UHGV virus genome: UHGV-1528002
DNA from: a virus
DNA: 36,070 nucleotides
Direction: 5' to 3' (one strand)
Below, piece by piece: positions 2,988 to 35,209 of this stretch (position 1 is the stretch's first letter; each line of letters opens with the position of its first letter). Made by a program: the position numbers and the translations under genes. The notes beneath the pieces were generated by a model. That model saw only the letters and a program-made list of their open reading frames with translations. It searched no databases and was not told the DNA's origin.

Positions 2988-3869
2988 TTACATAGATGTT
3001 TCGTTTAATTCTTCCCGACGAACGCTGTAAACGTCGGTGGCTTTTGCCAGCAGTTCGTCATCATCTGAAAGTTTTTGTGCAATGTATTTGTAAGCCTTAT
3101 CCAGTTCGGAGACAGTGCTGTAATTCATCGCTGCGCTGGTAAAGGCCATCAGCATTTCTTCTGGATCACGGCTATCCGCTTTACGCGTTTGCTCATCAGG
3201 CTTTTTCACTGGTTTAGCGTTGATCAGACTGTTCATTCCCGCAGCAGTAGTTGTTTGCGGAGTAATGTCTCGCTCAACGCGCGGTGCCGTTTCCTGTAAT
3301 TCGTCAGGGGTGTAAACACCAAGAAGTACATCAGGAGCGTGCAGGCGAGCCCATCGTTTCGTGCAAAGATAGGCAAGTTGCTGGCGCGGATCCTGTTCCC
3401 ACAATGGAGAGTTACGCACTCCGGCTTGCGCCATACTGATGGTAAGCTCACGTGGTTCTACTTCTCCTTTAAGAACTGCTGACACAGTTACCGTCAGATT
3501 CGGTGATTTATCTGTTTTGCCGTTAACATTCGACCAGTCACCGCTCCAGCGATAATTAAGGCGTGTCGCTAGCAGGCTGGAAGAGGATACGACCGCGTTT
3601 ACCAACTGTGCTTCGTAGCCTAACGTTCCGTTTACCACATGCGTTTTCTGCGCCACGGCGAAAGGGTTCATTCCCCACTGTGCCGCCTGCATGGTCACCG
3701 CCAGGCAATCGGCAGGTTTGCCTTCAAGATGTTTCGGTACAGTCGCTTTGCTTTGTGACATCAACTCCGCGAAACGCACCAGTTGATTCATGCCCTCGGG
3801 GCTGAAGATTGCCGCAGCAGTGCCTACAGTTGCGCCTGGTTGTGATGTGATTGCGATATCATTGCTCAT
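2988..3869 (-). CDS. Single-strand annealing recombinase, Red-beta/RecT superfamily
   Basis: Segments resembling lambda Bet (LAYLCTKRWARLHAPDVLLGVYTPDE, PRVERDITP); 4-nt overlap with the upstream exonuclease gene. Confidence 0.8.
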   Translation of the reverse strand: MSNDIAITSQPGATVGTAAAIFSPEGMNQLVRFAELMSQSKATVPKHLEGKPADCLAVTMQAAQWGMNPFAVAQKTHVVNGTLGYEAQLVNAVVSSSSLLATRLNYRWSGDWSNVNGKTDKSPNLTVTVSAVLKGEVEPRELTISMAQAGVRNSPLWEQDPRQQLAYLCTKRWARLHAPDVLLGVYTPDELQETAPRVERDITPQTTTAAGMNSLINAKPVKKPDEQTRKADSRDPEEMLMAFTSAAMNYSTVSELDKAYKYIAQKLSDDDELLAKATDVYSVRREELNETSM

Positions 3870-4687
3870 ACGTACATATCCTGTTTACGTGCCCAGTCAG
3901 GGCGTTTAATAATTTCCACTCCGCCCCATTCATCGTTGATGCGGCATTCGTGATAGGTATTCAGATCCCGGCGGAACAGAGCGTGCCCGGCATCGACATC
4001 TGGCGCATCCAGCTCGAACACGCGTACCGGATACCGACCACAATCAATGCTTTCGCTCACGGCAAGAAAGAAAAAACCATGCGGCTGACCAGTAACCCTC
4101 ATTGCGCCTTCGCGGTACATTGCGTCCTGCACGTGGTAGCGGAATTCCTCGATGTGGCGTGCAAAACGGTCCATATCTGCAACCTTTTTCACGTCGACGA
4201 TCACGTTGTGCTCGTTCAGCCATTTGTCTGGACGAATTCGGCACAACTCACCCGTCTCTTCATCGTTCCAGTACATTGATGCTTCGCAGTAACCAGGTGC
4301 TTCCAACATCCAGCGTGCCGCCGGATGAGCCATTGCGCTATCACGCATCAGCTCCAGTTTTCGCCACTGCTCGACATCAAGTACCGTAATACCCATATCC
4401 GCCACATCACGAAGAAATGCTTCTTCGTCAGCTTTACCTTGTTTTGTCCGACGATCGAATTTCGGTGAAACGATGAAGCGTTTGTCGAATTCTCCAGGTT
4501 CCAGAAGCAGGCAGTGCAATGCGGTTCCCATATCCAGTGCAGACTTTTTCTCTTCGTCTTCTGGTGCTGCCTGAACCCATTTAAGAAGCGCCGGATTCTT
4601 GGCAACCATGTCCAGTTGCGACTTACTCACGCCGTCACCTGCGTGGTAGTCTTCGTTGCTGATGTCGAAATAAATTCCCGGTTTCAT
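3866..4687 (-). CDS. Recombination exonuclease, PD-(D/E)XK family (RecE C-terminal-like)
   Basis: N-terminus MKPGIYFDISNEDYHAGDGVSKSQLD typical of the RecE-C-terminal-like nuclease fold; paired with the annealase gene as a RecET/Red-like module. Confidence 0.7.
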   Translation of the reverse strand: MKPGIYFDISNEDYHAGDGVSKSQLDMVAKNPALLKWVQAAPEDEEKKSALDMGTALHCLLLEPGEFDKRFIVSPKFDRRTKQGKADEEAFLRDVADMGITVLDVEQWRKLELMRDSAMAHPAARWMLEAPGYCEASMYWNDEETGELCRIRPDKWLNEHNVIVDVKKVADMDRFARHIEEFRYHVQDAMYREGAMRVTGQPHGFFFLAVSESIDCGRYPVRVFELDAPDVDAGHALFRRDLNTYHECRINDEWGGVEIIKRPDWARKQDMYV

Positions 4688-6316: not shown

Positions 6317-6331
6317 GTACCTCAAAGGTAA
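6317..6331. promoter_or_regulatory. Operator-like palindrome GTACCTCAAAGGTAA
   Basis: One mismatch to the TTACCT-N3-AGGTAA consensus; lies between the cro terminator and the next gene. Confidence 0.4.
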
Positions 6332-6411
6332 TAAAAAACCAAATATGGTTGATCTTTTTTTTGTGTCAGCACAAAATAACCGTAATCCCAATACTAATAA
6401 CAGGGCTTACC

Positions 6412-6627: not shown

Positions 6628-7443
6628 ATGAGCAGACATGCAACAGATTGGGCCTGGGAGACAGATCCAGGTAGCTCATCATTAAAGCTCATACTGCTCT
6701 CGATGGCTGACAGAGCCGATGAATATAACCTCTGCTACCCCAGCATAGAACGCCTCGTTAAAGACACTTGCCTGAATAAAAAAACCGTGCAGGCCGGGCT
6801 TATATCGCTCATGAAAATGGGGCTTATTTCAGATACCGGAGAGAGAAAGGGAGCGACAAAAAGAGTGCGGGTTTTCTCTCTTAATATAACCAAAAACGGG
6901 AACATTAAAGGCAACCGGGAAGGGGGTAATGAACCCGAAAACGGTAATTTTACCGAAAACGGGAATATACCCAAAAACGGGATGTTGAATGATCCCAAAA
7001 ACGGGATGTTGAATGATCCCAAAAACGGGATCCAGAACCAGTCATATAACCAGTCATTTAACCAAGAGAGGGAGAGCAGGACAAAAAACGGGGATTCTGT
7101 GTCTCATGACCCCGGCGCAAACAACGCCGTGATGAATAACTTTGTTCCTCCTGGTGGGCCAGGGCAATTAGGCAAATTTGTCATGCATGAACAATGGCAA
7201 CCATCAGATGACTTTCTTCGGAAAAGCTCATTGCAGGGGATCTACCTGGACAGTCTGCCAACGGCACAGGAACTTGCAGAGTTCAGAATTTACTGGATGG
7301 CTGAGGGTAAGGCATACCATCAGGCACAGTGGGAGCAGAAGCTGGCAAGGAGGCTGCAGATTAGCAGACAGAAGCAATCAACATTACCTGATAACAACGT
7401 TCCGCACTGGAACAGCCCTGAAGCATGGGAGGATTTCTTGTGA
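6628..7443 (+). CDS. Replication initiator (lambda O-like role) with N-terminal winged-helix domain and an iteron-encoding linker
   Basis: N-terminal HTH-like region (LKLILLSMADRADEYNLCYPSIERLVKDTCLNKKTVQAGLISL); repetitive Asn/Gly linker encoded by iterons; immediately upstream of a lambda P-like gene. Confidence 0.7.
   Translation: MSRHATDWAWETDPGSSSLKLILLSMADRADEYNLCYPSIERLVKDTCLNKKTVQAGLISLMKMGLISDTGERKGATKRVRVFSLNITKNGNIKGNREGGNEPENGNFTENGNIPKNGMLNDPKNGMLNDPKNGIQNQSYNQSFNQERESRTKNGDSVSHDPGANNAVMNNFVPPGGPGQLGKFVMHEQWQPSDDFLRKSSLQGIYLDSLPTAQELAEFRIYWMAEGKAYHQAQWEQKLARRLQISRQKQSTLPDNNVPHWNSPEAWEDFL
6889..7030 (+). repeat. Iteron array (candidate replication origin) inside the initiator gene
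   Basis: At least 6 direct repeats of (A/C)CC(A/G)AAAACGG(G/T)A at 6889, 6934, 6952, 6969, 6994, 7018; the last three are exactly 24 bp apart. Confidence 0.65.
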
Positions 7444-8225
7444 ACAACGTTTTTACCGCGATACAAAACCGTGACGGAGAAGCCCTTTCTCGCATGTCAG
7501 GTTATGAGCATCAGTACACCAACAATGACAACGTGGTGAACATGTCAGCAGAGAGGCTTGTTGATGCCCTTTTCAAACAGCTGAAACAACTGTTTCCGGC
7601 GGCAGTGGTAACCAACCTGAAGACGCCAGAGCAGGAAGTTGCTGCAAAACAGCAGTGGATTGCTGCGTTTGCCGAAGGGGGGATCCGAACCCGTGAACAG
7701 GTTTCTGCTGGTATGCGCCACGCCCGCGCCAGTGAGTCTCCGTTCTGGCCGTCGCCAGGGCAATTCATCAAGTGGTGTAAAGACAGCAAGATGGTTCTTG
7801 GCGTCACCATTGACGATGTGATGGCGGAGTTTCACCGGTACAGCAAGGAAAAAAGTTTATATCCTGGTGGTCCCGAAAGATTCCCGTGGCGACATCCGGT
7901 TATGTACTGGGTCGTATGTGATACCCGCCGTGCAATGTATCAGCGCCAGCTTAGCGAGATTGAGGTTGAGAAACACGCGCGCAGGCTGCTCGATGATTGG
8001 GCGAAAAAGGTAGCTTCCGGACAGCAGATACCCGATCCGGTGATCAGCATACAGGCAAAGCGAGAGCCCATGAGTACACCTCCGGACACAGGGAGAGACG
8101 TTTACCATCCACCAGGGCGAAGTTTCGGGTGCATGCCTAACGCCGCCACCCTTGGGGGAATAACACCGGCGCAGTGGCTGATGGAGGAATACAGGCGGGG
8201 AAAGGCGGCAGGATTTATCAAGTAA
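7425..8225 (+). CDS. Replication protein P-like helicase loader (start may be GTG 7440)
   Basis: Collinear similarity to lambda P (FPAAVVTNL...QQWIAAFAEGGIRTREQVSAGMRHARASESPFWPSPGQFIKWC...LYPGGPERFPW). Confidence 0.8.
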   Translation: MGGFLVNNVFTAIQNRDGEALSRMSGYEHQYTNNDNVVNMSAERLVDALFKQLKQLFPAAVVTNLKTPEQEVAAKQQWIAAFAEGGIRTREQVSAGMRHARASESPFWPSPGQFIKWCKDSKMVLGVTIDDVMAEFHRYSKEKSLYPGGPERFPWRHPVMYWVVCDTRRAMYQRQLSEIEVEKHARRLLDDWAKKVASGQQIPDPVISIQAKREPMSTPPDTGRDVYHPPGRSFGCMPNAATLGGITPAQWLMEEYRRGKAAGFIK

Positions 8226-8261
8226 TACCAGCGCGATAGCGCATTTTTTTACGCCTCAATG

Positions 8262-8276
8262 ATTACCTATCAGGTA
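8262..8276. promoter_or_regulatory. Operator palindrome TTACCTATCAGGTAA
   Basis: Exact consensus copy 48 bp upstream of the operator at 8324. Confidence 0.5.
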
Positions 8277-8295
8277 ACAAAATATTCTAAACTCT

Positions 8296-8338
8296 ATTGA
8301 TTTCGTGTCTTATGTGGTTTTTAATTACCTAAGAGGTA
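8296..8338 (+). promoter_or_regulatory. Promoter with overlapping operator for the DUF1064 gene
   Basis: TTGATT (8296-8301), 17 bp, TTTAAT (8319-8324), then TTACCTAAGAGGTAA (8324-8338) starting at the last T of the -10. Confidence 0.55.
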
Positions 8339-8342
8339 AATC

Positions 8343-8687
8343 ATGAGAAAACAGATACAGGCTCTTGGTCGACTCAAAACAGGCCAGATGAACAAAACAG
8401 AATCTGCGTATTGCCAGCACCTTGAGCTGCGTAAACGTGCAGGAGAAATCGTCTGGTATCGATTTGAGGGTATCAAGCTGCGGTTAGCTGACAACACGTT
8501 CTATACGCCCGATTTTGCTGTGATGCTCGCCACCGGCGAGATGGAACTGCACGAAGTGAAAGGTTTCTGGACCGACGACGCCAGGGTGAAAACCAAAGTC
8601 GCCGCAGATCAGTATCCGTTCCGAATCATCGGGGTAACGGTTAAACCAAAGAAAGCAGGTGGTGGCTGGAACATCGAAGAGTTCTGA
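8343..8687 (+). CDS. DUF1064-family phage protein (putative small nuclease/resolvase-like)
   Basis: 114 aa; pattern recalled as DUF1064 (GEIVWYRFEGIKLRLADNTFYTPDFAV...HEVKGFWTDDARVKTKV). Confidence 0.55.
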   Translation: MRKQIQALGRLKTGQMNKTESAYCQHLELRKRAGEIVWYRFEGIKLRLADNTFYTPDFAVMLATGEMELHEVKGFWTDDARVKTKVAADQYPFRIIGVTVKPKKAGGGWNIEEF

Positions 8688-8748
8688 ATCGACGATCTTT
8701 TTAGTTATCAATGTAATCAATAAGTTATGTGGATAAGCGAGGGTAAAG

Positions 8749-9249
8749 ATGGAAAGTAATATCAAAGGGTTAGTTTCCGCCGGGCATGAGATGGCTTCGG
8801 AACTGAAAGCAGAATGTGGTGCCGTTGATATGCGCAGTGTGGCAAAGCTGATCAGCGATTTGGCAACGCAACTGGAAGTGCAACTGGTGCGTGCTAATGC
8901 GCTGGCCGAAGACCACCAGAAAGCGATTGAGTCAATTAAGCAGGCTGATTCGGCTGTTAAGTTGGCACACGAGAAGTTTTCAGCGCTGGCGGCGGAGAAT
9001 GCTGGGCTGAAACATGCAATGGCTGTAACTCTTGAGCATGTGTCGGTCACGGATGCAGGGCAGGCTGGTGTTGCTGCAATGATTATCAACGATGCCCTAC
9101 ACCACAGCGAAACTCCAGCCACCGATGCTTTTCTGGCTGAAGTACGTGCGCAGGGCGTGGAGATGTTTGCGGAGTGTGCATACACACTTGAACATCATGA
9201 TCACGCAGTAGCTTTTGCCGCCGAGCTACGTGAAGGAGGCAACAAGTGA
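8749..9249 (+). CDS. Hypothetical phage protein (possibly Ea22-like)
   Basis: 166 aa, Ala/Glu-rich helical; GAGGG RBS. Confidence 0.5.
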   Translation: MESNIKGLVSAGHEMASELKAECGAVDMRSVAKLISDLATQLEVQLVRANALAEDHQKAIESIKQADSAVKLAHEKFSALAAENAGLKHAMAVTLEHVSVTDAGQAGVAAMIINDALHHSETPATDAFLAEVRAQGVEMFAECAYTLEHHDHAVAFAAELREGGNK

Positions 9250-9545
9250 CTGTATGTCTTATTGATAAACGTCGACGTGGGCAACAAATACCATCTGTTG
9301 AAATGCCGAATCACACATGGTTTTGCGTACTTGATATCGATGGTATGGATACGTTGATCGACACTCGTCATTACTGCGATACCGCAACAGCTACTCCTGC
9401 AAAAGCAAAGAAAATGGCTGCTCTGATAGAAAACTGGACTCCACCTGATGGTTGGTGCAATGGGAATGATCGAGATTGGCACGAAAAAATGAAGGGCTAT
9501 ATCTGCGATTTTTTACGTAAATGCAACGGATTCAGGGTGATGTGA
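9246..9545 (+). CDS. Hypothetical protein (GTG start overlapping the upstream stop)
   Basis: 99-aa ORF, GTGA overlap; no recognisable domain. Confidence 0.4.
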   Translation: MTVCLIDKRRRGQQIPSVEMPNHTWFCVLDIDGMDTLIDTRHYCDTATATPAKAKKMAALIENWTPPDGWCNGNDRDWHEKMKGYICDFLRKCNGFRVM

Positions 9546-9546
9546 T

Positions 9547-9945
9547 ATGACCAAAATTAACTATCAGGCACTGCGTGAGGCGGCAGAGCGTGCAATTCCG
9601 GCAATGGAACGCCTGTTAATGTTGCCAGTTGATGATGATCTGATAAGCGAGCAGGAACTTAAAGATAGCGGTGTTGATATTGATGCGCTCAATGCCTTCA
9701 AAATTCTGGCCGGACCAGAAAGCGTGCTGGCGCTACTGGATGAACTAGAAGCTAAAAACAAACGCATTACAGAACTGGAAGCGAGGGAAGTTCAATTACC
9801 GACTCGCTACGACCTTCGATATGGGCACCCAATAAATGCTAATAAGCGGCATGTCATGATACCTAAAGAAAATGGCAGTTGGCTTTGCCTGATTGACTTA
9901 GAACACGCACTACGCGTCGCTGGCATTCGCATCAAAGGAGAGTGA
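9547..9945 (+). CDS. Ead/Ea22-like protein
   Basis: N-terminus MTKINYQALREAAERA and PESVLALLDELEAKNKRITELE match the recalled Ea22-like pattern. Confidence 0.5.
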   Translation: MTKINYQALREAAERAIPAMERLLMLPVDDDLISEQELKDSGVDIDALNAFKILAGPESVLALLDELEAKNKRITELEAREVQLPTRYDLRYGHPINANKRHVMIPKENGSWLCLIDLEHALRVAGIRIKGE

Positions 9946-9946
9946 T

Positions 9947-10312
9947 ATGGCACTGACGAAAAAACAACGTGCAGAGCTGCGCATGAAGTTCGGCGGTCGC
10001 TGTGCTTATTGCGGCTGCGAACTTGGCGAAAAGTGGCATGCAGACCATGTAAAACCGGTCATTCGTTTTGCTGGAAATATGCTTCACCAGGAACGTGACG
10101 ATATATCCAACATGGTTCCGGCATGCCACCCATGCAATCTGCACAAGCATTGCAGCAGCCTGGAAGATTATCGGCGAATTATCAGTGATGGTCGTCGTGA
10201 ATTCCTTGCGTCCGGGAAAGGCAAAGCGCTGGTTCGTATGGGATTGGTTGAAATGAAATCTGACCCGATTGTGTTCTGGTTTGAAAAATATCAAGAAGGG
10301 GCTACGGCATGA
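9947..10312 (+). CDS. HNH endonuclease
   Basis: CAYCGC...HADHVKP...ACHPCNLHKH: paired Cys zinc ligands with His-Asp-His catalytic motif. Confidence 0.75.
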   Translation: MALTKKQRAELRMKFGGRCAYCGCELGEKWHADHVKPVIRFAGNMLHQERDDISNMVPACHPCNLHKHCSSLEDYRRIISDGRREFLASGKGKALVRMGLVEMKSDPIVFWFEKYQEGATA

Positions 10313-10698
10313 CCACTATTACCAGAGAAAACGCGGAAATTAAATCATTCATCACTGGTTTCCTGAGCGACCCGGCGCACGATAACCAATCTTCAAACAG
10401 CCTGCTTGCCAATGTGTTTCGTATTGCACTGGTATCGCTGGAAGCAAAACCAATAGGTGCATTTCACATTGCAGAACAGCAAGTTGACGGCACAAGTGAC
10501 TACATCAAGGATGGGGAGTGGCCTATTGATAATGGAATTATTGAGGTCTACGCCGCTCCACCCGTTCCAGTAGTACCGGAAGAAAAACCAATGCCTAATC
10601 CTCTTAGCATGTACGCGGTTGATGCTGTTGCTGCTATTGCAGAGGTGAGAGGCTGGAACGCCTGCCGTGCCGCTATGCTTCAGGGAAAAGGAGAGTGA
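10309..10698 (+). CDS. Hypothetical phage protein
   Basis: 129 aa; shares its first codons (ATGACCACTAT, MTTIT) with the next gene. Confidence 0.5.
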   Translation: MTTITRENAEIKSFITGFLSDPAHDNQSSNSLLANVFRIALVSLEAKPIGAFHIAEQQVDGTSDYIKDGEWPIDNGIIEVYAAPPVPVVPEEKPMPNPLSMYAVDAVAAIAEVRGWNACRAAMLQGKGE

Positions 10699-10699
10699 T

Positions 10700-11272
10700 A
10701 TGACCACTATAACCGATAAGAAACAGTATCCCAGCGATCAATATCTTAATGAGCTGATCACCAACATGGAGTTTGCTGCAAGGGCACCAGTTGAAGTCGT
10801 GAGAGTGATGGCAGCAGAGCTACAGAAGCGGCGCGAAGCTGATAGTGCAGAACCTGTAAGCCAAACTTACAACTTGCCACAAACGCACTTTGAACAGGTT
10901 GCTGACCTTTACGAAATGCAATTTGAGGATGGACGCACTTGTGCCTTTCATACTGATGCGAAAAAGGCTGCGCAATGGCTTCAGTCATGTGACGGAAACA
11001 GGGTTCAGGAATATGTGAAGCTGGAGCGGTTGCAGAACGCGCTGTCTGGCAACTCTCCGGTAACTCAGGATGGCTGGATAAGCTGTAGTGAGCGAATGCC
11101 AAACGAAGAAGATGTTTTGGTTTATTGCTCAGACACAAAAGAGCAGATGGTAGGGTTTCACAAAGGTAAAGGGTTATTTCAATTCTTTTACATGAATGGT
11201 GTTGAGGGGGTATGTGAGCCGTCACACTGGATGCCACTACCAGAACCGCCGCAGGAGGTTAACCGTGGCTAA
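10700..11272 (+). CDS. DUF551-domain phage protein
   Basis: C-terminal DGWISCSERMPNEEDVLVYC...HWMPLPEPP recalled as the DUF551 pattern; ATG 10700 behind GGAGAG RBS. Confidence 0.55.
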   Translation: MTTITDKKQYPSDQYLNELITNMEFAARAPVEVVRVMAAELQKRREADSAEPVSQTYNLPQTHFEQVADLYEMQFEDGRTCAFHTDAKKAAQWLQSCDGNRVQEYVKLERLQNALSGNSPVTQDGWISCSERMPNEEDVLVYCSDTKEQMVGFHKGKGLFQFFYMNGVEGVCEPSHWMPLPEPPQEVNRG

Positions 11273-11546
11273 CCTGCAACTTGCCGTCAAAGGTGAATAT
11301 TTCGACCAGATGAAGTCAGGCGAGAAAACGGAAGAGTATCGCCTGTGTAATGACTACTGGAATAAGCGAATTATGTTCCGGGAGTATGACCGCCTGATTA
11401 TCACAAAGGGATATCCGAAGCGCGACGATTCCTGCCGCAGAATTGACGTCCCGTATGACGGATATGAAATCAAGACAATCACACATCCGCACTTCGGTGA
11501 TAAACCGGTAAAGGTGTTCGCGATAAAGGTAAATATTGATGGCTAA
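11265..11546 (+). CDS. ASCH/DUF3850-like small protein (GTG start)
   Basis: GTG 11265 behind GGAGG RBS; LQLAVKGEYFDQMKSGEKTEEYR resembles the ASCH-fold N-terminus. Confidence 0.4.
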   Translation: MANLQLAVKGEYFDQMKSGEKTEEYRLCNDYWNKRIMFREYDRLIITKGYPKRDDSCRRIDVPYDGYEIKTITHPHFGDKPVKVFAIKVNIDG

Positions 11547-11877
11547 ATCAGCAGCAGAGCGCAAAGCCGCTCAGAGAGCCAGACAAGCTGCATCTGGTGT
11601 GCGTAAGCTGGAGATTGTGCTTGATGCTCAGGAAATTGAAATGCTGGAGCGTAACTGTGCCACACGTCGCCCCGGGCGTGCGCCTTACGAATTTGGTGAG
11701 TATATAGCGTTACTGATCCGCCAGGATGATGCACGCGTGCGCGGGCGTATAAAATCGATCAGCAGAAAACGTTGCGGTAAGTGCGGCGAGAGAGTTCCTG
11801 TGAATTCATGCCCGTGTAATGGTGACTCGCAATGCTGGGTGACTAAAGGCTGGCATGAAACGAAATTAATAGTGTGA
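11539..11877 (+). CDS. Hypothetical basic protein with C-terminal Cys4 zinc ribbon (candidate regulator)
   Basis: N-terminal basic helical segment (AERKAAQRARQAASGVRKLEIVLDAQEIEMLERN) and CGKCGERVPVNSCPC cluster; last gene before the late region. Confidence 0.45.
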   Translation: MAKSAAERKAAQRARQAASGVRKLEIVLDAQEIEMLERNCATRRPGRAPYEFGEYIALLIRQDDARVRGRIKSISRKRCGKCGERVPVNSCPCNGDSQCWVTKGWHETKLIV

Positions 11878-11885
11878 CATGTCAC
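11873..11885. repeat. Palindrome TGTGACATGTCAC, copy 1
   Basis: Perfect palindrome overlapping the stop codon of the upstream gene; same 13-mer at 14324 and 31845. Confidence 0.7.
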
Positions 11886-11894
11886 GAAGGTGTT

Positions 11895-12107
11895 ATGCCA
11901 AAAATACGCTACGACCTTGAAGATATGAGAGATAACTCAGCAAATTTTCCGAAAGAGGTTAAATTTCTCATGCATAAGTATGGTTGCGCCAGGAGGGATA
12001 TAGTTATCGACAGTCAGCACCCTTGCGGCGAGGATGTAATTTTCATTCGCGGTAAATGGGAAGGGTATCTTGACGAGAGTTTTTACGATGAATTTGATGG
12101 ACTTTGA
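11895..12107 (+). CDS. Hypothetical small protein in an AT-rich moron
   Basis: 70-aa ORF from ATG 11895 in a low-GC segment, preceded by the palindrome and followed by a terminator. Confidence 0.35.
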   Translation: MPKIRYDLEDMRDNSANFPKEVKFLMHKYGCARRDIVIDSQHPCGEDVIFIRGKWEGYLDESFYDEFDGL

Positions 12108-12112
12108 ATACT

Positions 12113-12139
12113 GCCGCCAACTATGGCGGCTTTATTTTG
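12113..12139 (+). terminator. Rho-independent terminator just upstream of the terminase genes
   Basis: GCCGCC-aactat-GGCGGC followed by TTTATTTTG. Confidence 0.6.
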
Positions 12140-12181
12140 CATGGTACTATTACCACAACGGTAACTATTACCAAGGTGGTT

Positions 12182-12778
12182 ATGATGCCTGCTGAACCTA
12201 AAACCTATAAACGCAAATCAACGCAATTTAAGCCACTAACAGCAATGCAGGAGGCTTATTGCCAGTCATACATCAAAACGCCTGAAAACCAGACTCAGGC
12301 AGCGATTAACGCAGGATTCTCCCCAAATACAGCGGCAGTTAAAGCCAGTGTCATGATGCGCGATGAACGCATTCAAAAACGGATTGCCGAGTTGATGGAG
12401 GAGCGCAACAAACGAATGCGCGTCAGTGCTGATTACGTTCTCATGCGCCTGGTGGAGATCGACCAGATGGACGTGATCGACATCCTCAACGACGATGGGA
12501 GCCTTAAACCAATCCGTGAGTGGCCGAAAATCTGGCGCACTACGCTTAGTGGCTTTGATCTGTCATCGACCATCATGAACATGAACGAGGATTCGATAGA
12601 GACAATCCTCAAAAAAATTAAATGGCCTGACAAGGTGAAGAACCTTGAGCTGATTGGTAAGCATGTTGATGTCAACGCGTTCAAAGAACGTCTGGATGTT
12701 AATGTGAATGTGACAATTGCTGATCGCATAGCAGCAGCCAGGAAGCGACTCAAAGAACGTCAGGATGGTAATCAGTGA
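12182..12778 (+). CDS. Terminase small subunit
   Basis: ATG 12182 behind AAGGTGG RBS (the track's longer ORF spans the terminator); AYCQSYIKTPENQTQAAINAGFSPNTAAVKAS matches the small-terminase pattern; overlaps the large subunit gene. Confidence 0.75.
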   Translation: MMPAEPKTYKRKSTQFKPLTAMQEAYCQSYIKTPENQTQAAINAGFSPNTAAVKASVMMRDERIQKRIAELMEERNKRMRVSADYVLMRLVEIDQMDVIDILNDDGSLKPIREWPKIWRTTLSGFDLSSTIMNMNEDSIETILKKIKWPDKVKNLELIGKHVDVNAFKERLDVNVNVTIADRIAAARKRLKERQDGNQ

Positions 12779-14250
12779 CAGATACAGCGTTATCTCCTGA
12801 AGAGCAGTTGATCGAGGATATTGCAGGGTTCACTCACGATCCGCTTGGTTATGCCCTCTATGCGTTCCCGTGGGGGGAAGAGGGGACTGAACTGGCACAT
12901 GCCACCGGTCCACGTCAGTGGCAGGCCGATGCGTTCCGAGAGATACGTGATCACCTGCAGAATCCAGAGACGCGCTATCAGCCGCTTATGCTGGCACGCG
13001 CTTCTGGTCACGGTATTGGTAAATCCGCATTCATCTCAATGCTGATCAACTGGGGCATGTCCACTTGCGAGGATTGTAAGGTCGTGGTGACCGCCAACAC
13101 CGACAACCAGCTACGAACGAAGACTTGGCCGGAAATTATCAAGTGGTCGAACCTTGCTATCACGAAAGACTGGTTTACCTGTACCGCTACCGCGATGTAC
13201 AGCAATGATCCTGGGCACGACAAGCGGTGGCGAGCTGACGCAATCCCCTGGTCTGAGCACAACACTGAGGCATTCGCCGGACTACACAACGAGCGCAAAC
13301 GCATCATCGTGGTATTCGATGAAGCGTCGAACATTGCGGATCTGGTGTGGGAAGTTGCCGAGGGTGCGCTAACGGACGAAGACACTGAGATTATCTGGGT
13401 GGCGTTCGGAAACCCGACGCGTAATACCGGACGTTTCCGCGAATGTTTCCGCAAATATAAACACCGCTGGAAAACTGCGCAGATTGACAGCCGGACGGTG
13501 GAAGGCACTAACAAACAGCAGTTGCAGAAATGGGTTGATGACTACGGGGAAGACAGCGACTTCGTTAAAATCCGTGTGCGCGGCATATTCCCGGATGCAT
13601 CTGAATTGCAGTTTATCCCTACCGGACTTACTGACGAGGCAATGAAACGGGTGGTCACCGCTGCGCAGGTTGCACATGCTCCGGTGATAATCGGCGTTGA
13701 CCCGGCATACTCAGGCGTTGATGATGCGGTGATATACCTGCGGCAGGGGCTGCACAGTAAGGTGCTGTGGACCGGCAACAAGACCACTGACGATCTGATT
13801 ATGGCAAAGCGTATCGCTGACTTTGAAGACCAGTATCAGGCTGACGCGGTGTTCATCGACTTCGGTTACGGAACTGGTCTGAAGTCAATCGGTGACGGCT
13901 GGGGTCGTACATGGCAACTTGTTCCGTTCGGTGGCGCGTCTACTGACCCGCAGATGCTCAATAAGCGCGGGGAGATGTTCAACTCATGCAAGACGTGGCT
14001 GAGGCTGGGCGGCATGCTTGATGACCAGGAAACAGCGGACGACCTGTCGGCGGCAGAGTACAAAGTTCGAGTGGACGGTAAAATCGTTATCGAACCGAAG
14101 GAAGATATCAAGGAGCGGCTTGGGCGTTCTCCTGGTAAAGGCGATGCGCTACTGCTGACGTTTGCGTTCCCTGTGTCGAAGCGTCTGCGAATTCCCGGGC
14201 AGCAGAACCAGCAAGGCAAGGCCATCACAGATTACGATCCATATGCTTAA
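12775..14250 (+). CDS. Terminase large subunit
   Basis: 491 aa; ATPase region (ARASGHGIGKS, VVFDEASN) and C-terminal nuclease region; position next to the small subunit. Confidence 0.85.
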   Translation: MTDTALSPEEQLIEDIAGFTHDPLGYALYAFPWGEEGTELAHATGPRQWQADAFREIRDHLQNPETRYQPLMLARASGHGIGKSAFISMLINWGMSTCEDCKVVVTANTDNQLRTKTWPEIIKWSNLAITKDWFTCTATAMYSNDPGHDKRWRADAIPWSEHNTEAFAGLHNERKRIIVVFDEASNIADLVWEVAEGALTDEDTEIIWVAFGNPTRNTGRFRECFRKYKHRWKTAQIDSRTVEGTNKQQLQKWVDDYGEDSDFVKIRVRGIFPDASELQFIPTGLTDEAMKRVVTAAQVAHAPVIIGVDPAYSGVDDAVIYLRQGLHSKVLWTGNKTTDDLIMAKRIADFEDQYQADAVFIDFGYGTGLKSIGDGWGRTWQLVPFGGASTDPQMLNKRGEMFNSCKTWLRLGGMLDDQETADDLSAAEYKVRVDGKIVIEPKEDIKERLGRSPGKGDALLLTFAFPVSKRLRIPGQQNQQGKAITDYDPYA

Positions 14251-14300
14251 TCCGCTGGTGGGGATAATGTCGTTGATATCCTCTGATGAGGATAAAACAA

Positions 14301-14323
14301 AGCCAGCTCATCGGCTGGCTGTT
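14301..14323. terminator. Bidirectional terminator-like hairpin between convergent genes
   Basis: AGCCAGC-tcatcg-GCTGGCT; T-rich tract on the minus strand (TTTGTTTTAT) and GTTTG on the plus strand. Confidence 0.5.
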
Positions 14324-14336
14324 TGTGACATGTCAC
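14324..14336. repeat. Palindrome TGTGACATGTCAC, copy 2
   Basis: Identical 13-mer; shares the extended flank ...GTCACG-GTGTTA with copy 1. Confidence 0.7.
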
Positions 14337-14340
14337 GGTG

Positions 14341-14760
14341 TTACTTAATGGCATTAAATCCAGCGTTGATGGCTTCCGCAATATTGATGGCACTTGTTTT
14401 ATCGAAGTGCCCATTCTGAATAAGCGCCGCATGCAGGCATTGTAACTTCATGTTGTATAAGTGTTCGCTCATGTAATCATGATCACTTTTTGCTTTAGCG
14501 TAAACAGCGCGAGAAATATCAAACATATCGCCTTTTTCCATTTCAGAACGTTGTGCTGTTATCCAGTCATGGAACGTAACGCTAGTACCATGGTCTTCGC
14601 TAAGAGTTAACCCGGCCAGTCCCTCACTCTGAATTACTTCGTAATGCATTTCATTACCAGCAAAAACGCCATAAAAAACGCAGTCTTCAGCCTGAACGAT
14701 ACGAGAATATTTTAATGGCCATTCATTTAGATACTTAGCCAACATATCAATTGTCTTCAT
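14341..14760 (-). CDS. Hypothetical protein (inverted moron between terminase and portal)
   Basis: 139-aa ORF opposite to the flanking late genes; AAGGTGAG RBS directly after a terminator hairpin. Confidence 0.5.
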   Translation of the reverse strand: MKTIDMLAKYLNEWPLKYSRIVQAEDCVFYGVFAGNEMHYEVIQSEGLAGLTLSEDHGTSVTFHDWITAQRSEMEKGDMFDISRAVYAKAKSDHDYMSEHLYNMKLQCLHAALIQNGHFDKTSAINIAEAINAGFNAIK

Positions 14761-14770
14761 AATCTCACCT

Positions 14771-14797
14771 TAAAAAAATGCCCGGACGAACCGGGCG
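14771..14797 (-). terminator. Rho-independent terminator between the tRNA and the moron gene
   Basis: Minus strand GCCCGG-ttcgt-CCGGGC followed by TTTTTTT. Confidence 0.6.
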
Positions 14798-14870
14798 AAC
14801 TGGAAGCAATGAGTTCTGCCTTCCGTGGCTGTACTGGTTTACAGCATGAAGTCATCGCAATGGCGTCCTG

Positions 14871-14916
14871 CTGTAAAAAGGGCGGTGATAGTCCTTCAAG
14901 GGAAACCATCACCGCC
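14871..14916 (-). terminator. Terminator-like long hairpin downstream of the tRNA
   Basis: Minus strand 9-bp stem GGCGGTGAT...ATCACCGCC with 18-nt loop followed by CTTTTT. Confidence 0.4.
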
Positions 14917-14959
14917 AAGCACCTGGAACTTCTGGCATCACGGTCCTTAGGCGTGATTC

Positions 14960-15036
14960 TGGCGTGGCATGCAGGATTCGAACCTGCGACCAACCGCTTA
15001 GAAGGCGGTTGCTCTGTCCAACTGAGCTAATGCCAC
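14960..15036 (-). tRNA. tRNA-Arg, anticodon UCU, CCA encoded
   Basis: Minus strand folds as a cloverleaf: acceptor GTGGCAT/ATGCCAC, D-stem GCTC/GAGC, anticodon stem ACCGC/GCGGT with loop CTTCTAA, T-arm GCAGG-TTCGAATC-CTGC, discriminator G plus CCA. Confidence 0.85.
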
Positions 15037-15358
15037 AACGCTGAGAGCACTTAGCCTGTTAAGGCGCCACACTTTGTCGCGGCTCCATAAATGCTCTCAT
15101 CGTTGTACCCTCGTCTCTTCCGAGGCGTCACACCGAATCGCCGGGATGGTGAATCCCCGTGCGCGGAATAAAACCGCTCGACTTGCACATTCCGGCTACC
15201 TGGTTCGTTTGCCCGAGCAAGGGAGGGTGCCCCTTAAACGTATCCAGACCGCTATCGGCGCATGTGCCATACGCCGTACTGCTCAAAATAAAAGCTCACT
15301 CCACCTGTTCAATTTAACGACAAGCCAGTCATGTTAGTAACCGGAATGAACTCTTTGG

Positions 15359-15373
15359 TTACCTCAAAGGTAA
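15359..15373. promoter_or_regulatory. Operator palindrome TTACCTCAAAGGTAA
   Basis: Exact consensus copy in the 427-bp non-coding region between the tRNA and the gp6.7-like gene; minus-strand flank AATTAT-TACCT as at PL. Confidence 0.45.
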
Positions 15374-15463
15374 TAATTCGCGCATTAAATGTCAACTGCC
15401 TACGATAAATAAATCATATGTGGTTAAATTGGTAATAATTTAATTGCGTACGGAGTCATTGAT

Positions 15464-15670
15464 ATGTGCATGGGTAGCTCACCATCAGTGCCTGCAACAC
15501 CAGAAGTTCAGGCAGCACCACAGGAGCAGGATGCCGCCGTTGTTGATGCCCGCGACGAAGAAACTCGTCGCCGTCGCGCTGCTGCTGGTCGTAGTTCTAC
15601 GCTGCTTACCGGTTCTCAGGGCGACACATCAACCGCTAAGACCAGCGGTAAAACGCTGCTTGGTCAGTAA
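15464..15670 (+). CDS. Small virion protein resembling T7 gp6.7
   Basis: 68 aa starting MC, Ser/Thr/Ala-rich with basic C-terminus; sits directly upstream of the portal gene as in T7. Confidence 0.5.
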   Translation: MCMGSSPSVPATPEVQAAPQEQDAAVVDARDEETRRRRAAAGRSSTLLTGSQGDTSTAKTSGKTLLGQ

Positions 15671-15684
15671 CCGGAGTCATTGAA

Positions 15685-17364
15685 ATGGCGGAAACAACTA
15701 AAGAGCGATTGAACAAACAGTTCGCACAACTTGAAAGCGAGCGTCAGTCGTTCGAGCCGCACTGGCGCGAGTTGAGTGATTACATCAACCCACGTGGTTC
15801 CCGCTTTCTGACTTCTGAGGTCAACCGTAACGATCGACGCAATACACGCATTATTGATTCGACCGGGACTATGGCGGCGCGCACTCTCGCCAGCGGCATG
15901 ATGTCAGGCATCACAAGCCCCGCGCGTCCGTGGTTTCGCCTGGCTACGCCAGATCCTGAAATGATGGATTATGGCCCTGTTAAGTTGTGGCTTGAGGCGG
16001 TGCAGAACCGCATGAACGATATGTTCAATAAGTCGAATCTCTACCAGTCTCTTCCGCAGTTATACGGAAGCCTCGGCACATACAGCACCGGTGCAATGGC
16101 GGTACTGGAGGATGACGAGGACATCATTCGCACAATGCCATTCCCGATAGGCAGTTACTACCTGGCTAACTCACCTCGTGGCAGTGTGGACACCTGTTTT
16201 CGCAAGTTCTCTATGACCGTTCGTCAGCTTGTTCAGGAGTTCGGGCTAAATAACGTCAGCGAATCCGTAAAAAGCATGTGGGAAAGCGGCACCTACGAGA
16301 AGTGGATTGAAGTGATGCATTCGGTTTACCCGAACATTGACCGCGATACATCGAAGCTGGATAGCAAGAACAAGCCATTCAAATCGGTTTATTACGAGGT
16401 TGGCGGTGATAACGACAAGTTGTTGCGTGAGTCCGGATTCGATGAGTTTCCAATTATGGCTCCGCGCTGGGAAGTTAATGGCGAAGATGTTTATGGATCA
16501 TCATGCCCGGGTATGCTGGCGCTTGGACCTGTTAAGGCATTGCAGCTTCTCCAGAAGCGCAAGTCGCAGTTGATTGATAAAGCCACCAATCCGCCGATGG
16601 TTGCTCCGACTTCCCTCAAGAATCAGCGCGCCTCCCTTCTTCCTGGCGACATCACGTATATCGATCAGATTACTGGTCAGGATGGATTCAGGCCTGCTTA
16701 TCTGGTTAACCCCAGTACAGCAGATTTGGTGGCAGACATTCAGGACACTCGTCAAATCATTAACAGCGCCTACTTTGTCGATCTGTTCATGATGTTGCAG
16801 AACATCAATACCCGCTCGATGCCTGTTGAAGCGGTGATCGAAATGAAAGAAGAAAAACTTCTGATGTTGGGGCCGGTTCTGGAGCGTCTGAACGACGAAT
16901 GTCTTAATCCTCTCATTGACCGCGCTTTCTCGATGATGGTGCGTAAAAACATGCTGCCGCCACCGCCTGACGCGATGGAAGGCATGCCCCTGAAGGTCGA
17001 ATACATTTCCGTCATGGCTCAGGCGCAGAAGTCTATCGGCCTGTCCAGTCTGGCGTCCACGGTTAACTTCATTGGTCAACTTGCGCAAGCGAAACCAGAA
17101 GCTCTCGACAAACTCAACGTTGATCAGGCGATCGATGCATTCGCTGATATGTCCGGAGTGTCTCCAACCGTCATTGTTCCGCAGGAACAGGTTGAGCAGG
17201 CTCGCCAGCAACGGGCACAGCAGCAACAGCAGCAACAAATGATGGCGATGGGGATGGCGGCGGCACAGGGTGTCAAGACGCTAAGTGAAGCTAAAACTTC
17301 GGATCCGAGTGTGTTGTCAGCTATGGCGAATGCAGTTAGTGGTCAGGGTGGGCAATCACAATGA
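15685..17364 (+). CDS. Portal (head-to-tail connector) protein, T7 gp8-like
   Basis: 559 aa; Gln-rich C-terminus QQRAQQQQQQQMMAMGMAAAQG parallels the T7 gp8 C-terminus; followed by scaffold and capsid genes. Confidence 0.8.
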   Translation: MAETTKERLNKQFAQLESERQSFEPHWRELSDYINPRGSRFLTSEVNRNDRRNTRIIDSTGTMAARTLASGMMSGITSPARPWFRLATPDPEMMDYGPVKLWLEAVQNRMNDMFNKSNLYQSLPQLYGSLGTYSTGAMAVLEDDEDIIRTMPFPIGSYYLANSPRGSVDTCFRKFSMTVRQLVQEFGLNNVSESVKSMWESGTYEKWIEVMHSVYPNIDRDTSKLDSKNKPFKSVYYEVGGDNDKLLRESGFDEFPIMAPRWEVNGEDVYGSSCPGMLALGPVKALQLLQKRKSQLIDKATNPPMVAPTSLKNQRASLLPGDITYIDQITGQDGFRPAYLVNPSTADLVADIQDTRQIINSAYFVDLFMMLQNINTRSMPVEAVIEMKEEKLLMLGPVLERLNDECLNPLIDRAFSMMVRKNMLPPPPDAMEGMPLKVEYISVMAQAQKSIGLSSLASTVNFIGQLAQAKPEALDKLNVDQAIDAFADMSGVSPTVIVPQEQVEQARQQRAQQQQQQQMMAMGMAAAQGVKTLSEAKTSDPSVLSAMANAVSGQGGQSQ

Positions 17365-17657
17365 CAGATTACGAAGACGATCAACTGAAAGAAGAAAACG
17401 CCCGTAAGCAACGTGACATGGCACAGCGTGAAATTGATGACATTCGCTTTGTCATGAGCAGTGAACAGGGGCGTCGCGTTGTCTGGTCGGTGCTGGAGAA
17501 AGGCCGTGTGTTTTCCGCTATCTCTCCGATGGATGCTATGGCAATGGCATTTAATGAGGGGCAACGCAATCTGGCGCTGGAACTGTTTCAGCGCGTTATG
17601 GCGCATTGCCCTGAACAGTATTTGAAGATGGCCAAAGAGGCCAGTGAACAGGAGTGA
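17361..17657 (+). CDS. Hypothetical head-module protein
   Basis: 98-aa ORF with ATGA overlap to portal; no recognised domain. Confidence 0.45.
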   Translation: MTDYEDDQLKEENARKQRDMAQREIDDIRFVMSSEQGRRVVWSVLEKGRVFSAISPMDAMAMAFNEGQRNLALELFQRVMAHCPEQYLKMAKEASEQE

Positions 17658-31552: not shown

Positions 31553-31849
31553 ATGCAAGCGATAGGATTCATTGTTTATATCGTCGTTGGTCTTTTTCAG
31601 TTGGCAGCAATTATGGCTGGGCTTGAATCATGGTGGGGATTGCACTGGATAATTGCAGCCCCCATTGCTTTCATCGTGAGCTATATTCCATTTGTTGGAG
31701 CGATTGTTGGTATGGTTGGCGCTGTGGATGTATGGCGGTGGGAGTGGTGGCAGGCTGGCCTTCTCTTCTTTGGTGGGATCATCTTTGCTATTGTCTGCGG
31801 TGGAATGTCATCATTTTTCGAATGGCTATCATTCAGAAAAAGAGTGTGA
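31553..31849 (+). CDS. Small integral membrane protein (3 predicted TM helices)
   Basis: 98 aa with three hydrophobic stretches and a basic C-terminus (FRKRV); AGGTGA RBS. Confidence 0.5.
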   Translation: MQAIGFIVYIVVGLFQLAAIMAGLESWWGLHWIIAAPIAFIVSYIPFVGAIVGMVGAVDVWRWEWWQAGLLFFGGIIFAIVCGGMSSFFEWLSFRKRV

Positions 31850-31858
31850 CATGTCACA
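31845..31858. repeat. Palindrome TGTGACATGTCACA, copy 3
   Basis: Perfect 14-bp palindrome overlapping the stop codon of the membrane-protein gene. Confidence 0.7.
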
Positions 31859-33877: not shown

Positions 33878-33921
33878 TTACCGCAAAGGTAATGATAAAC
33901 GCTGATAAATATAAAAATCAA
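33878..33921 (-). promoter_or_regulatory. Leftward promoter with overlapping operator driving the antirepressor leader
   Basis: Minus strand TTGATT (plus 33916-33921), 18 bp, TATCAT (plus 33892-33897), then TTACCTTTGCGGTAA (plus 33878-33892) starting at the last T of the -10. Confidence 0.5.
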
Positions 33922-35090: not shown

Positions 35091-35105
35091 TTACCTGAAA
35101 GGTAA
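35091..35105. promoter_or_regulatory. Operator palindrome TTACCTGAAAGGTAA
   Basis: Exact consensus copy in the divergent region between the small KilAC-like gene and the tail-fibre gene. Confidence 0.5.
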
Positions 35106-35209
35106 TATCTATTCATATTCACAGTCTTTCTATCCATATGTGGTTTTTCAGGTAATAGAATAACCAGATATGCGGCGCAACGGGTGCTGCGACTATCTGG
35201 AGATTTAAC

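Follow-up and report, generated by a model that had tools for sequence, protein, structure and literature searches.

The UHGV virus genome UHGV-1528002, 36,070 nt long and here called the window for the whole stretch of DNA analysed, contains an array of small accessory genes whose junctions are marked by short repeated sequences, the linkers with which this analysis is concerned. The window is an epsilon15-like (Uetakevirus) temperate podophage, and its terminase-portal segment is 96-98% identical to those of the Uetakevirus phages phiV10, TL-2011b, HEMP4, PAS61 and ZX5. On its plus strand, the replication genes are followed in order by DUF1064, Eae-like, DUF7739, Ead/Ea22-like and HNH genes, gene B, DUF551, ASCH-like and 112-aa regulator genes, and the genes for the small and large terminase subunits (TerS and TerL). 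The accessory region, at ~8.7-11.9 kb, is an array of small 'ea'-type genes in which no promoter was detectable.

The junctions in question lie downstream of the DUF7739 gene (9246-9545, +). The Ead/Ea22-like gene (9547-9945, +) encodes a 132-aa protein ending in ...RVAGIRIKGE, which matches Pfam PF13935 over residues 3-85 only (E = 9e-19), leaving its C-terminal tail outside the domain. The HNH endonuclease cassette (9947-10312, +; 121 aa) contains an HNH nuclease domain, as it matches both Pfam HNH PF01844 (E = 1.5e-6, 28.7 bits vs a cut-off of 21.4) and PHROG 2118, 'HNH endonuclease' (E = 2.8e-56). Gene B (10309-10698, +; 129 aa, ending in ...NACRAAMLQGKGE) has no known function, its two matches, phrog_5117 and phrog_660, both being families of unknown function. 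The DUF551 (EaA-like) gene (10700-11272, +; Pfam PF04448, E = 1.6e-19) encodes 190 aa beginning with MTTITDKKQY.

Anatomy of the repeated junctions

A preliminary description of this DNA had drawn attention to three repeats, all of which are real. A 16-mer, AAAGGAGAGTGATATG, is found exactly at 9934-9949 and 10687-10702; ATGACCACTAT opens the open reading frames (ORFs) at 10309 and 10700, which are identical at 14 of their first 15 nt and whose proteins both start MTTIT; and CGGAGTCATTGA-N-ATG is present at 15451-15466 and 15672-15687. Two further likenesses had been missed. The junction at 9547 (GTGATGTGATATGACC; 9536-9556, +) has TGATATGACC in common with the 10700 junction, and positions 10687-10710 form an uninterrupted 24-mer made of AAAGGAGAGTGAT directly followed by ATGACCACTAT. 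The halves of this 24-mer stand apart at the earlier site, the left at 9934 and the right at 10309, with the HNH ORF (9947-10312) exactly between them.

The repeated junctions are beyond chance. With up to two mismatches allowed, the expected count of the 16-mer is 0.02, and none of 100 shuffles reached two matches. When the contexts of 50 gene starts (-20 to +15) were compared in register, giving 1,225 pairs, the four longest runs were precisely the flagged junctions, with 16 nt for 9947/10700, 12 for 9547/10700, 12 for 15464/15685 and 11 for 10309/10700; no remaining pair exceeded 9 nt.

The 16-mer reads AAA GGA GAG TGA T ATG, that is, the last codons of the upstream gene (KGE), its stop, one base and the next start, and each copy is the core of a longer boundary linker. 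Linker 1, of the AGIRIKGE type (9912-9952, +; core 9934-9949; full string CGCGTCGCTGGCATTCGCATCAAAGGAGAGTGATATG), comprises the last codons of the Ea22-like gene (GCT GGC ATT CGC ATC AAA GGA GAG), TGA, one base and the HNH ATG; a Shine-Dalgarno sequence, AGGAG, lies at 9936-9940, 6 nt from the ATG, and the stop at 9943-9945 is one base away from the ATG at 9947. Linker 2, of the AAMLQGKGE type (10660-10714, +; core 10687-10702; 43-nt string GCCTGCCGTGCCGCTATGCTTCAGGGAAAAGGAGAGTGATATG), comprises the end of gene B, TGA, one base, the ATG and the first five codons (MTTIT) of the DUF551 gene, with an identical layout of AGGAG, spacer, TGA and ATG at 10689-10702. Its 43-nt string was found again in other loci, where at least three different genes stand downstream of its tail.

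Other joints of the array are built from recurring parts as well. The shared start ATGACCACTATTACC (10309-10323, +; MTTIT) of gene B is the right border of the HNH cassette, and the HNH stop overlaps it as ATGA. At the DUF7739/Ea22-like junction (9536-9556), homology blocks begin at 9547-9548 in many loci, and in one locus (L229) the same upstream gene end is followed by a gene starting MTTMTRE instead. The DUF551/ASCH-like junction (11240-11290, +) is of another type, in which an end ...PEPPQEVNRG overlaps a GTG start by 8 nt (GTGGCTAA); this string is identical in L003 and in many loci anchored on gene B, and breakpoints lie near it, with blocks starting at ~11220 and ending at 11250-11290.

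Translationally coupled genes typically have a Shine-Dalgarno sequence inside the upstream ORF, 5-9 nt from the start, and a stop within a few nt of it; the linkers, with their 6-nt spacing, have this layout and would thus be coupling joints in a promoterless gene string. Simpler origins for the repeats were considered and rejected. A tandem duplication does not fit, as the flanking genes are unrelated. On this point the reading of the preliminary description does not hold: the two copies have only 16 exact nt in common, fall into different linker subclasses (AGIRIKGE vs AAMLQGKGE) and are not duplicates of each other. Paralogy of gene B and DUF551 does not account for the shared MTTIT, since BLASTP finds nothing past the first residues (E = 0.94); in other loci, intermediates show both genes drawing on a mosaic pool of N-terminal modules. 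RNA structure was dismissed because none of the four junction regions gave a better fold than its shuffled sequence (z = -0.99, +0.89, +0.66 and -0.38), and in an Rfam scan of 8000-16000 a tRNA was the sole match, with no family in the cassette string. Internal promoters or terminators were also discarded as the cause of the repeats, no promoter-like or terminator-like site being detected in 9400-11400.

Linker contexts in other genomes and switches of homology

A scan of IMG/VR for the exact 16-mer gave at least 120 contigs with 133 occurrences, which were oriented and clustered by their flanks. The linker loci are redundant and 120 of them were chosen for containing the 16-mer, so that the counts that follow measure diversity. 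Among the matches listed, these 133 occurrences fall into at least 40 left clusters and at least 37 right clusters, joined in at least 78 left/right combinations, and one right-hand gene stands behind at least 12 different left-hand genes. Loci anchored on gene B behave in the same manner, its shared start being found behind at least nine different upstream junctions and several downstream junction types recurring. Many of the upstream proteins, most of which are unrelated to each other, have a common tail, ...(R)AAGIRIKGE, ...AAAGKGE or ...NACRAAMLQGKGE, directly before the stop. This tail is conserved as DNA: in 11 unrelated upstream contexts, at loci that were not chosen through the 16-mer, it invariably reads GGC ATT CGC ATC AAA GGA GAG TGA. 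By these comparisons, the conserved element is a boundary sequence of 33-43 nt that overlaps the last 8-10 upstream codons and of which the 16-mer is the core.

The linker is widespread in enterobacterial genomes. A 50-nt query (9903-9952) matched at 3,306 sites spread over 1,912 of the 5,426 E. coli genomes, with up to six per genome, adjoining differently annotated genes, and the linker seems to separate 'ea'-type cassettes in lambdoid, P22-like, Stx, epsilon15-like and plasmid-borne enterobacterial phages. The segment 9400-11400 as a whole is highly mosaic: 421 phage records and, among the 5,426 E. coli genomes, 2,977 contain pieces of it; when the same four-gene arrangement was sought, at most 34% of the segment was covered in any phage record and 43% in any E. 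coli genome. Cassettes of the 'ea' type and their linkers were also seen outside classical prophages, on the 108-kb plasmid pOkiPb01698_2 (L001; a plasmid or phage-plasmid) and on the chromosome of E. coli GF43 (L005), where a ParB/DUF2786/STY4528-type island with plasmid-like partition and replication genes carries the same cassettes and linkers.

Close relatives give the same picture. Six Uetakevirus genomes (the window, PAS61, ZX5, TL-2011b, EC.W1-9 and prophage E275a) have a common frame, DUF1064-Eae...regulator-TerS, and backbones that are 95-98% identical, and each of them carries a different cassette string assembled with the same few junction types.

The ends of homology blocks concentrate at the junctions: 39% of 1,102 block ends fall within 20 nt of a gene junction, where 12.7% are expected, and homology ends exactly at 9943, 9949-9952, 10328 and 10702. 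In loci whose flanks are unrelated to the window, linker 1 stands as an isolated island of homology starting at 9912-9920 and ending at 9949-9952, and such islands of 33-41 nt are 95-100% identical between unrelated flanks. Pairwise comparison of 189 distinct linker contexts gave 682 pairs in which one side is at least 95% identical and the other unrelated, and 39 pairs that are similar on both sides; in most of the 682 one-sided pairs the switch lies at or within the linker. Single loci illustrate this, homology being lost exactly at 10702 in L005, and the HNH gene being joined straight to a 10700-type gene through the shared start, without gene B, in L006. These comparisons identify the linker as the commonest place where homology between phages switches.

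The HNH gene provides a test case that does not depend on the 16-mer, since the loci anchored on it were found through its protein; they are the best 80 of 468 viral contigs that encode a relative. In these 80 loci the HNH relatives are 93-99% identical while their flanks differ. At least seven different genes lie upstream, nearly always through an A(A/G)GGAxxxTGAxATG junction, and the gene is followed nearly always by the start ATGAC(C/G)ACT(A/T)TTACC and then by at least seven different genes with MTT(I/F)T N-termini. In 58 loci the HNH homology block begins at 9943, and in 59 it reaches to 10328, with 81 ends of high-scoring segment pairs overall at 10317-10329; this block, 9943-10328, corresponds to the HNH ORF plus the five-codon start. 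Two loci, L147 and L244, differ by exactly the 363-nt HNH ORF, between ...CTGAT and ATGACCACTATTACC. The HNH gene thus behaves as what would be a nucleotide-precise presence/absence cassette between the linker and the ATGACCACTAT start.

These features could be taken to mean that the repeats are the target and flanks of a mobile HNH homing cassette, whose enzyme would cut HNH-less ...GGAGAGTGAT|ATGACCACTAT... joints (candidates are AAAGGAGAGTGATATGACCACTAT and its variants, and a Stx-type joint, ATAAGGAAAGCTGATATGACC) and be copied in during repair, the halves at 9934 and 10309 being the footprints of its insertion. At the earlier site the HNH ORF fits exactly into a junction that stands uninterrupted at 10687-10710. 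This position, the high identity of the gene in the best 80 of the 468 contigs despite differing flanks, and the precise 363-nt presence/absence of L147 and L244 are all as expected from homing, and a small conserved HNH ORF with many flanks and seemingly precise presence or absence at an intergenic joint recalls the free-standing HNH homing endonuclease genes of phages. Unlike with these genes, however, an uncut 'empty' joint persists in the same genome: at junction 2 (10687-10710), a candidate empty site is left intact in the window together with the HNH gene, which argues against that sequence as the target. The linkers are also far more widespread than the gene, which was present in only ~4 fetched loci beyond the window and the 80 retrieved by protein (85 HNH-positive loci in all), while in the examined stretches of HK620, PAS61, ZX5, TL-2011b, EC.W1-9 and L003 linkers are present and this HNH gene is absent. 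A search for empty sites with matching flanks gave L147 and L244 as the sole pair, and their flanks are just 83% identical, with downstream genes that diverge after ~20 nt. In its strict form, homing was rejected on the strength of this single, diverged pair and of the intact candidate target beside the gene; as the source of the repeats we regard it as distinctly improbable, and at best it might explain movement of the HNH cassette, not the linker system.

Altogether, the proposal of the preliminary description that the linkers mark sites of module exchange is partly supported. The check it had suggested, whether gene content in relatives varies at the linkers, came out positive for the 16-mer and for the ATGACCACTAT start, as seen from the flank combinations, the changing neighbours of the HNH gene and the six different Uetakevirus strings; the pair at 15451 and 15672, treated below, does not belong with them, as its neighbours are invariant in nine genomes. 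That the shuffling is recent is not supported: the best matches of the accessory blocks (96-98.7%) are no closer than those of the backbone (98.9-99.6%), and since hundreds of diverged contexts have the 16-mer core in nearly unchanged form, the identity of the two copies says nothing about their age.

Probable exchange of cassettes at the linkers

We consider it likely that each of the window's 16-mers, at 9934 and at 10687, forms the invariant core of its own subclass of a conserved linker, at which cassettes are exchanged by homologous recombination. Since many unrelated genes end in one and the same DNA string, the string would offer a patch of homology. Crossovers between linkers in co-resident phages or prophages could then insert, delete or replace whole cassettes with the downstream gene still translated; as the linker carries the translation signals of the next gene, any cassette placed after it would be expressed. 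The start ATGACCACTAT(T/A)ACC may play the same part at the right side of some cassettes, including HNH. Phage annealing proteins would catalyse these crossovers, the presumed catalysts being the phage's own RecT and PDDEXK exonuclease, encoded in a recombination module on the minus strand (2988-4687; RecT at 2988-3869, Pfam RecT, E = 2.6e-31; DUF3799 exonuclease at 3866-4687, E = 1.7e-21). RecT, Red-beta and Erf proteins are known to drive mosaic formation (PMC3945230; PMC2327257), and the minimal pairing lengths reported are 23-27 bp for Red-beta and 31-34 bp for RecA (PMC3945230). At 33-43 nt, and near-identical within a subclass, the linker exceeds the first of these lengths and is close to the second.

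The similarity of the junctions could alternatively stem from illegitimate recombination followed by selection (the Hendrix-Juhala view), in which joints form anywhere, those at gene boundaries survive, and the survivors look alike by convergence on an optimal cassette of stop, Shine-Dalgarno and start for coupling. The 16-mer core indeed consists almost entirely of functional signals (AGGAG, a 6-nt spacer, TGA and ATG), weaker variants with the same layout and different bases exist (ATAAGGAAAGCTGATATG, GAAGGGGGAGTGAGATG), and about half of the lambdoid mosaic joints in published analyses lack flanking homology (PMC2327257). Conservation nevertheless reaches 15-25 nt upstream of the Shine-Dalgarno sequence, into codons without any translation signal, where synonymous sites are invariant in the 11 unrelated protein contexts, and such identical codon choice is not predicted by convergence; nor do isolated islands of 33-41 nt at 95-100% identity between unrelated flanks speak for it. 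We therefore find this alternative as a whole unlikely.

Several observations weigh against homologous exchange at the linkers, or at least restrict it. Because the linker loci are redundant and partly selected through the 16-mer, their counts are not counts of independent events. The two copies in the window, with 16 exact nt in common, are unlikely to recombine efficiently with each other, and both this bare 16-mer and the 11-15 nt start are below the reported pairing lengths; the right-hand arm ATGACCACTAT... would be too short on its own to serve as an efficient homology arm. Many breakpoints are intragenic, at 10420, 10570 and 10870, and others surround short internal islands at 9100-9160 and 11040-11100, suggesting that exchange uses any conserved patch and not gene boundaries alone, the boundaries being, as it appears, the commonest such patches and not the sole ones. 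Moreover, the block 10420-10860 runs intact across junction 2 in L001-L004, so that junction 2 would often not act as a breakpoint. Finally, the evidence is wholly comparative, no recombination event having been observed.

Some of these intragenic sites have features of their own. The strong breakpoint at 10420 lies within gene B at a conserved motif, RIALVSLEAKP, gene B itself being mosaic, and the ~50-60 nt islands at 9100-9160 (in the Eae-like gene) and 11040-11100 (in the DUF551 gene) behave like linkers within coding regions.

A feature of this kind is already known, and no new kind of biology is involved. Exchange in lambdoid phages at short conserved flanking sequences has been described (PMC2327257; PMC3029335), and such sequences date back to the modular theory of Susskind and Botstein (1978), with its linkers; for HK620, boundary sequences were described by Clark, Inwood, Cloutier and Dhillon (2001), as far as the passages citing these works in PMC3029335 and PMC2327257 go. 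In HK620, hkaG (Ea22) ends ...CGCGCCGCTGGCATTCGCATCAAAGGAGAGTGAgATG before hkaF, which agrees with the linker of the window at 35 of 37 nt, and the DUF551 gene hkaE opens with ATGACCACTATTACC; from its presence in this same HK620 region we infer that the window's linker is probably among the sequences that Clark et al. reported. Like lambdoid linkers, those of the window are short conserved strings at gene boundaries (33-43 nt spanning stop and start at 9912-9952 and 10660-10714), have non-homologous flanking genes in different phages, coincide with breakpoints and have, within a subclass, a length and exactness that would allow homologous recombination. The setting differs: HK620 is P22-like with its cassettes in the early-left operon, whereas in the window, an epsilon15-like podophage, they belong to the rightward operon and lie between the genes for replication and those for terminase.

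The case is also close to relaxed or homeologous recombination by Rad52-like annealing proteins (Martinsohn 2008, PMC2327257; De Paepe 2014, PMC3945230), given the encoded RecT and exonuclease, a linker that exceeds the Red-beta length, and intragenic breakpoints at conserved motifs, as that model predicts. It differs from those studies, which concern hundreds of bp with up to 22% divergence, in that the linker patches are tens of nt long and nearly exact and that the window case is comparative only.

Integron gene cassettes offer a looser parallel, with promoterless single-gene cassettes, a one-directional array and a recurring short end sequence. In contrast to attC sites, the linkers form no hairpin-forming inverted repeat (z -0.99 and +0.89), have no Rfam match, have no integron-type integrase adjoining the array, lie within coding sequence and are common by sequence identity, not by structure. 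One could still imagine that the linker is a self-propagating signal for cassette exchange, maintained at the DNA level and perhaps serviced by a nuclease such as that of the HNH cassette breaking TGAnATG joints, which would make it an integron-like system for phages, phage-plasmids and genomic islands. The identical codons that end at least 11 unrelated proteins and the HNH cassette always sitting directly on such junctions prompt this idea, which we hold to be very improbable.

The value of the present case lies in its being an unusually clean and abundant example of a known feature. It is a clear, quantifiable case for the old debate between mosaicism by homologous exchange at linkers and mosaicism by illegitimate recombination with selection, a debate made directly testable by an abundant linker (~3,300 copies across 5,426 E. 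coli genomes) with conserved synonymous sites and a length that fits annealing proteins. For annotation, it explains why unrelated small phage proteins have common tails (...AGIRIKGE) and starts (MTTIT), and such shared ends should not count as evidence of homology or common function.

The late-operon leader pair and further features of the window

The third repeat of the preliminary description lies outside the cassette array, in the leaders of a 68-aa gene (CGGAGTCATTGAtATG, 15451-15466, +; phrog_831, function unknown) and of the portal gene (CGGAGTCATTGAaATG, 15672-15687, +). The preliminary description took these leaders as a further linker for module exchange, and they do match over 12 nt in register, 221 nt apart, which places them among the top three of the start-context pairs. 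The 68-aa and portal genes are, however, adjacent with the same 14-nt gap in nine of nine genomes (the window and eight Uetakevirus relatives), and this invariant gene content shows that the pair is not an exchange linker. The repeat is moreover specific to a clade: GGAGTCATTG is present in both leaders of the E. coli phages and of Enterobacter phage Tyrion, while epsilon15 and SPN1S have GGAGTAGGCAGAG as the leader of the portal gene and a Klebsiella phage has GGAGCGCGGAAG there, the shared spacer being absent from these three. A repeat missing from relatives and an invariant gene content are what the preliminary description had itself named as the outcome contrary to its proposal, and for this pair exchange at a linker was rejected as hardly credible. 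The pair is instead a clade-specific (E. coli/Enterobacter) Shine-Dalgarno sequence and spacer common to the first two genes of the late operon. Most likely the leader was copied or converted locally, or the two genes were selected to initiate translation alike.

In Tyrion (L132), both leaders have GGAGTCATTGT (2881-2895 and 3102-3116) where both have GGAGTCATTGA in the E. coli phages (window 15452-15466 and 15673-15687); that one base change is seen in both leaders is a hint of concerted evolution or of a constraint common to them. The portal gene of PAS61 (L128, 8455-10662), annotated as 'head-to-tail connector', has a coding sequence of 2,208 nt, where that of the window, like that of the other relatives, has 1,680 nt. 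Its match to the window is broken into three pieces, suggesting that the portal gene of PAS61 has undergone an insertion or fusion.

A hairpin-like palindrome of 17 nt, TACCTCAAAGGTAATAA, is found exactly at 6318-6334 and 15360-15376, with near-copies at 33879-33895 and 35092-35108. It resembles a site annotated 'repressor, lysogeny' in the RefSeq record of epsilon15 (ATTACCTAAAAGGTAAT). The window's copy at 15360-15376 and the epsilon15 site each precede the 68-aa gene by ~100 nt, so that the late operon appears to be under direct repressor control.

A second palindrome, of 14 bp, TGTGACATGTCAC(G/A), occurs in perfect or near-perfect form at 11873-11886, 14324-14337 and 31845-31858, three copies vs 0.04 expected, with a one-mismatch copy at 17412-17425. 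Each of the three copies stands where a block of genes ends, the first behind the 112-aa regulator gene, the second behind TerL and the third behind the ORF at 31553-31849, and part of the palindrome is kept upstream of TerS in PAS61 and E275a; it may be a binding site for a regulator. Between TerL and the tRNA-Arg(TCT) gene (14960-15036, -), the reverse-strand gene 14341-14760 (-; phrog_4846, function unknown) occupies a slot where each Uetakevirus relative examined has a gene of another length (339-606 nt), and this position is a second variable slot, of the moron type.

Elsewhere in the window, a gene for an MT-A70 family DNA methyltransferase (1638-2300, -) adjoins the integrase and the recombination module. 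Four 24-nt direct repeats (6882-7034; consensus GAATnnnCCCAAAAACGGGAT) lie within the O-like replication initiator gene (6628-7443) and look like origin iterons. A 23-nt direct repeat (12681-12703 and 12750-12772), whose copies are 91% identical and 69 nt apart, lies within the C-terminal coding part of the small terminase gene.

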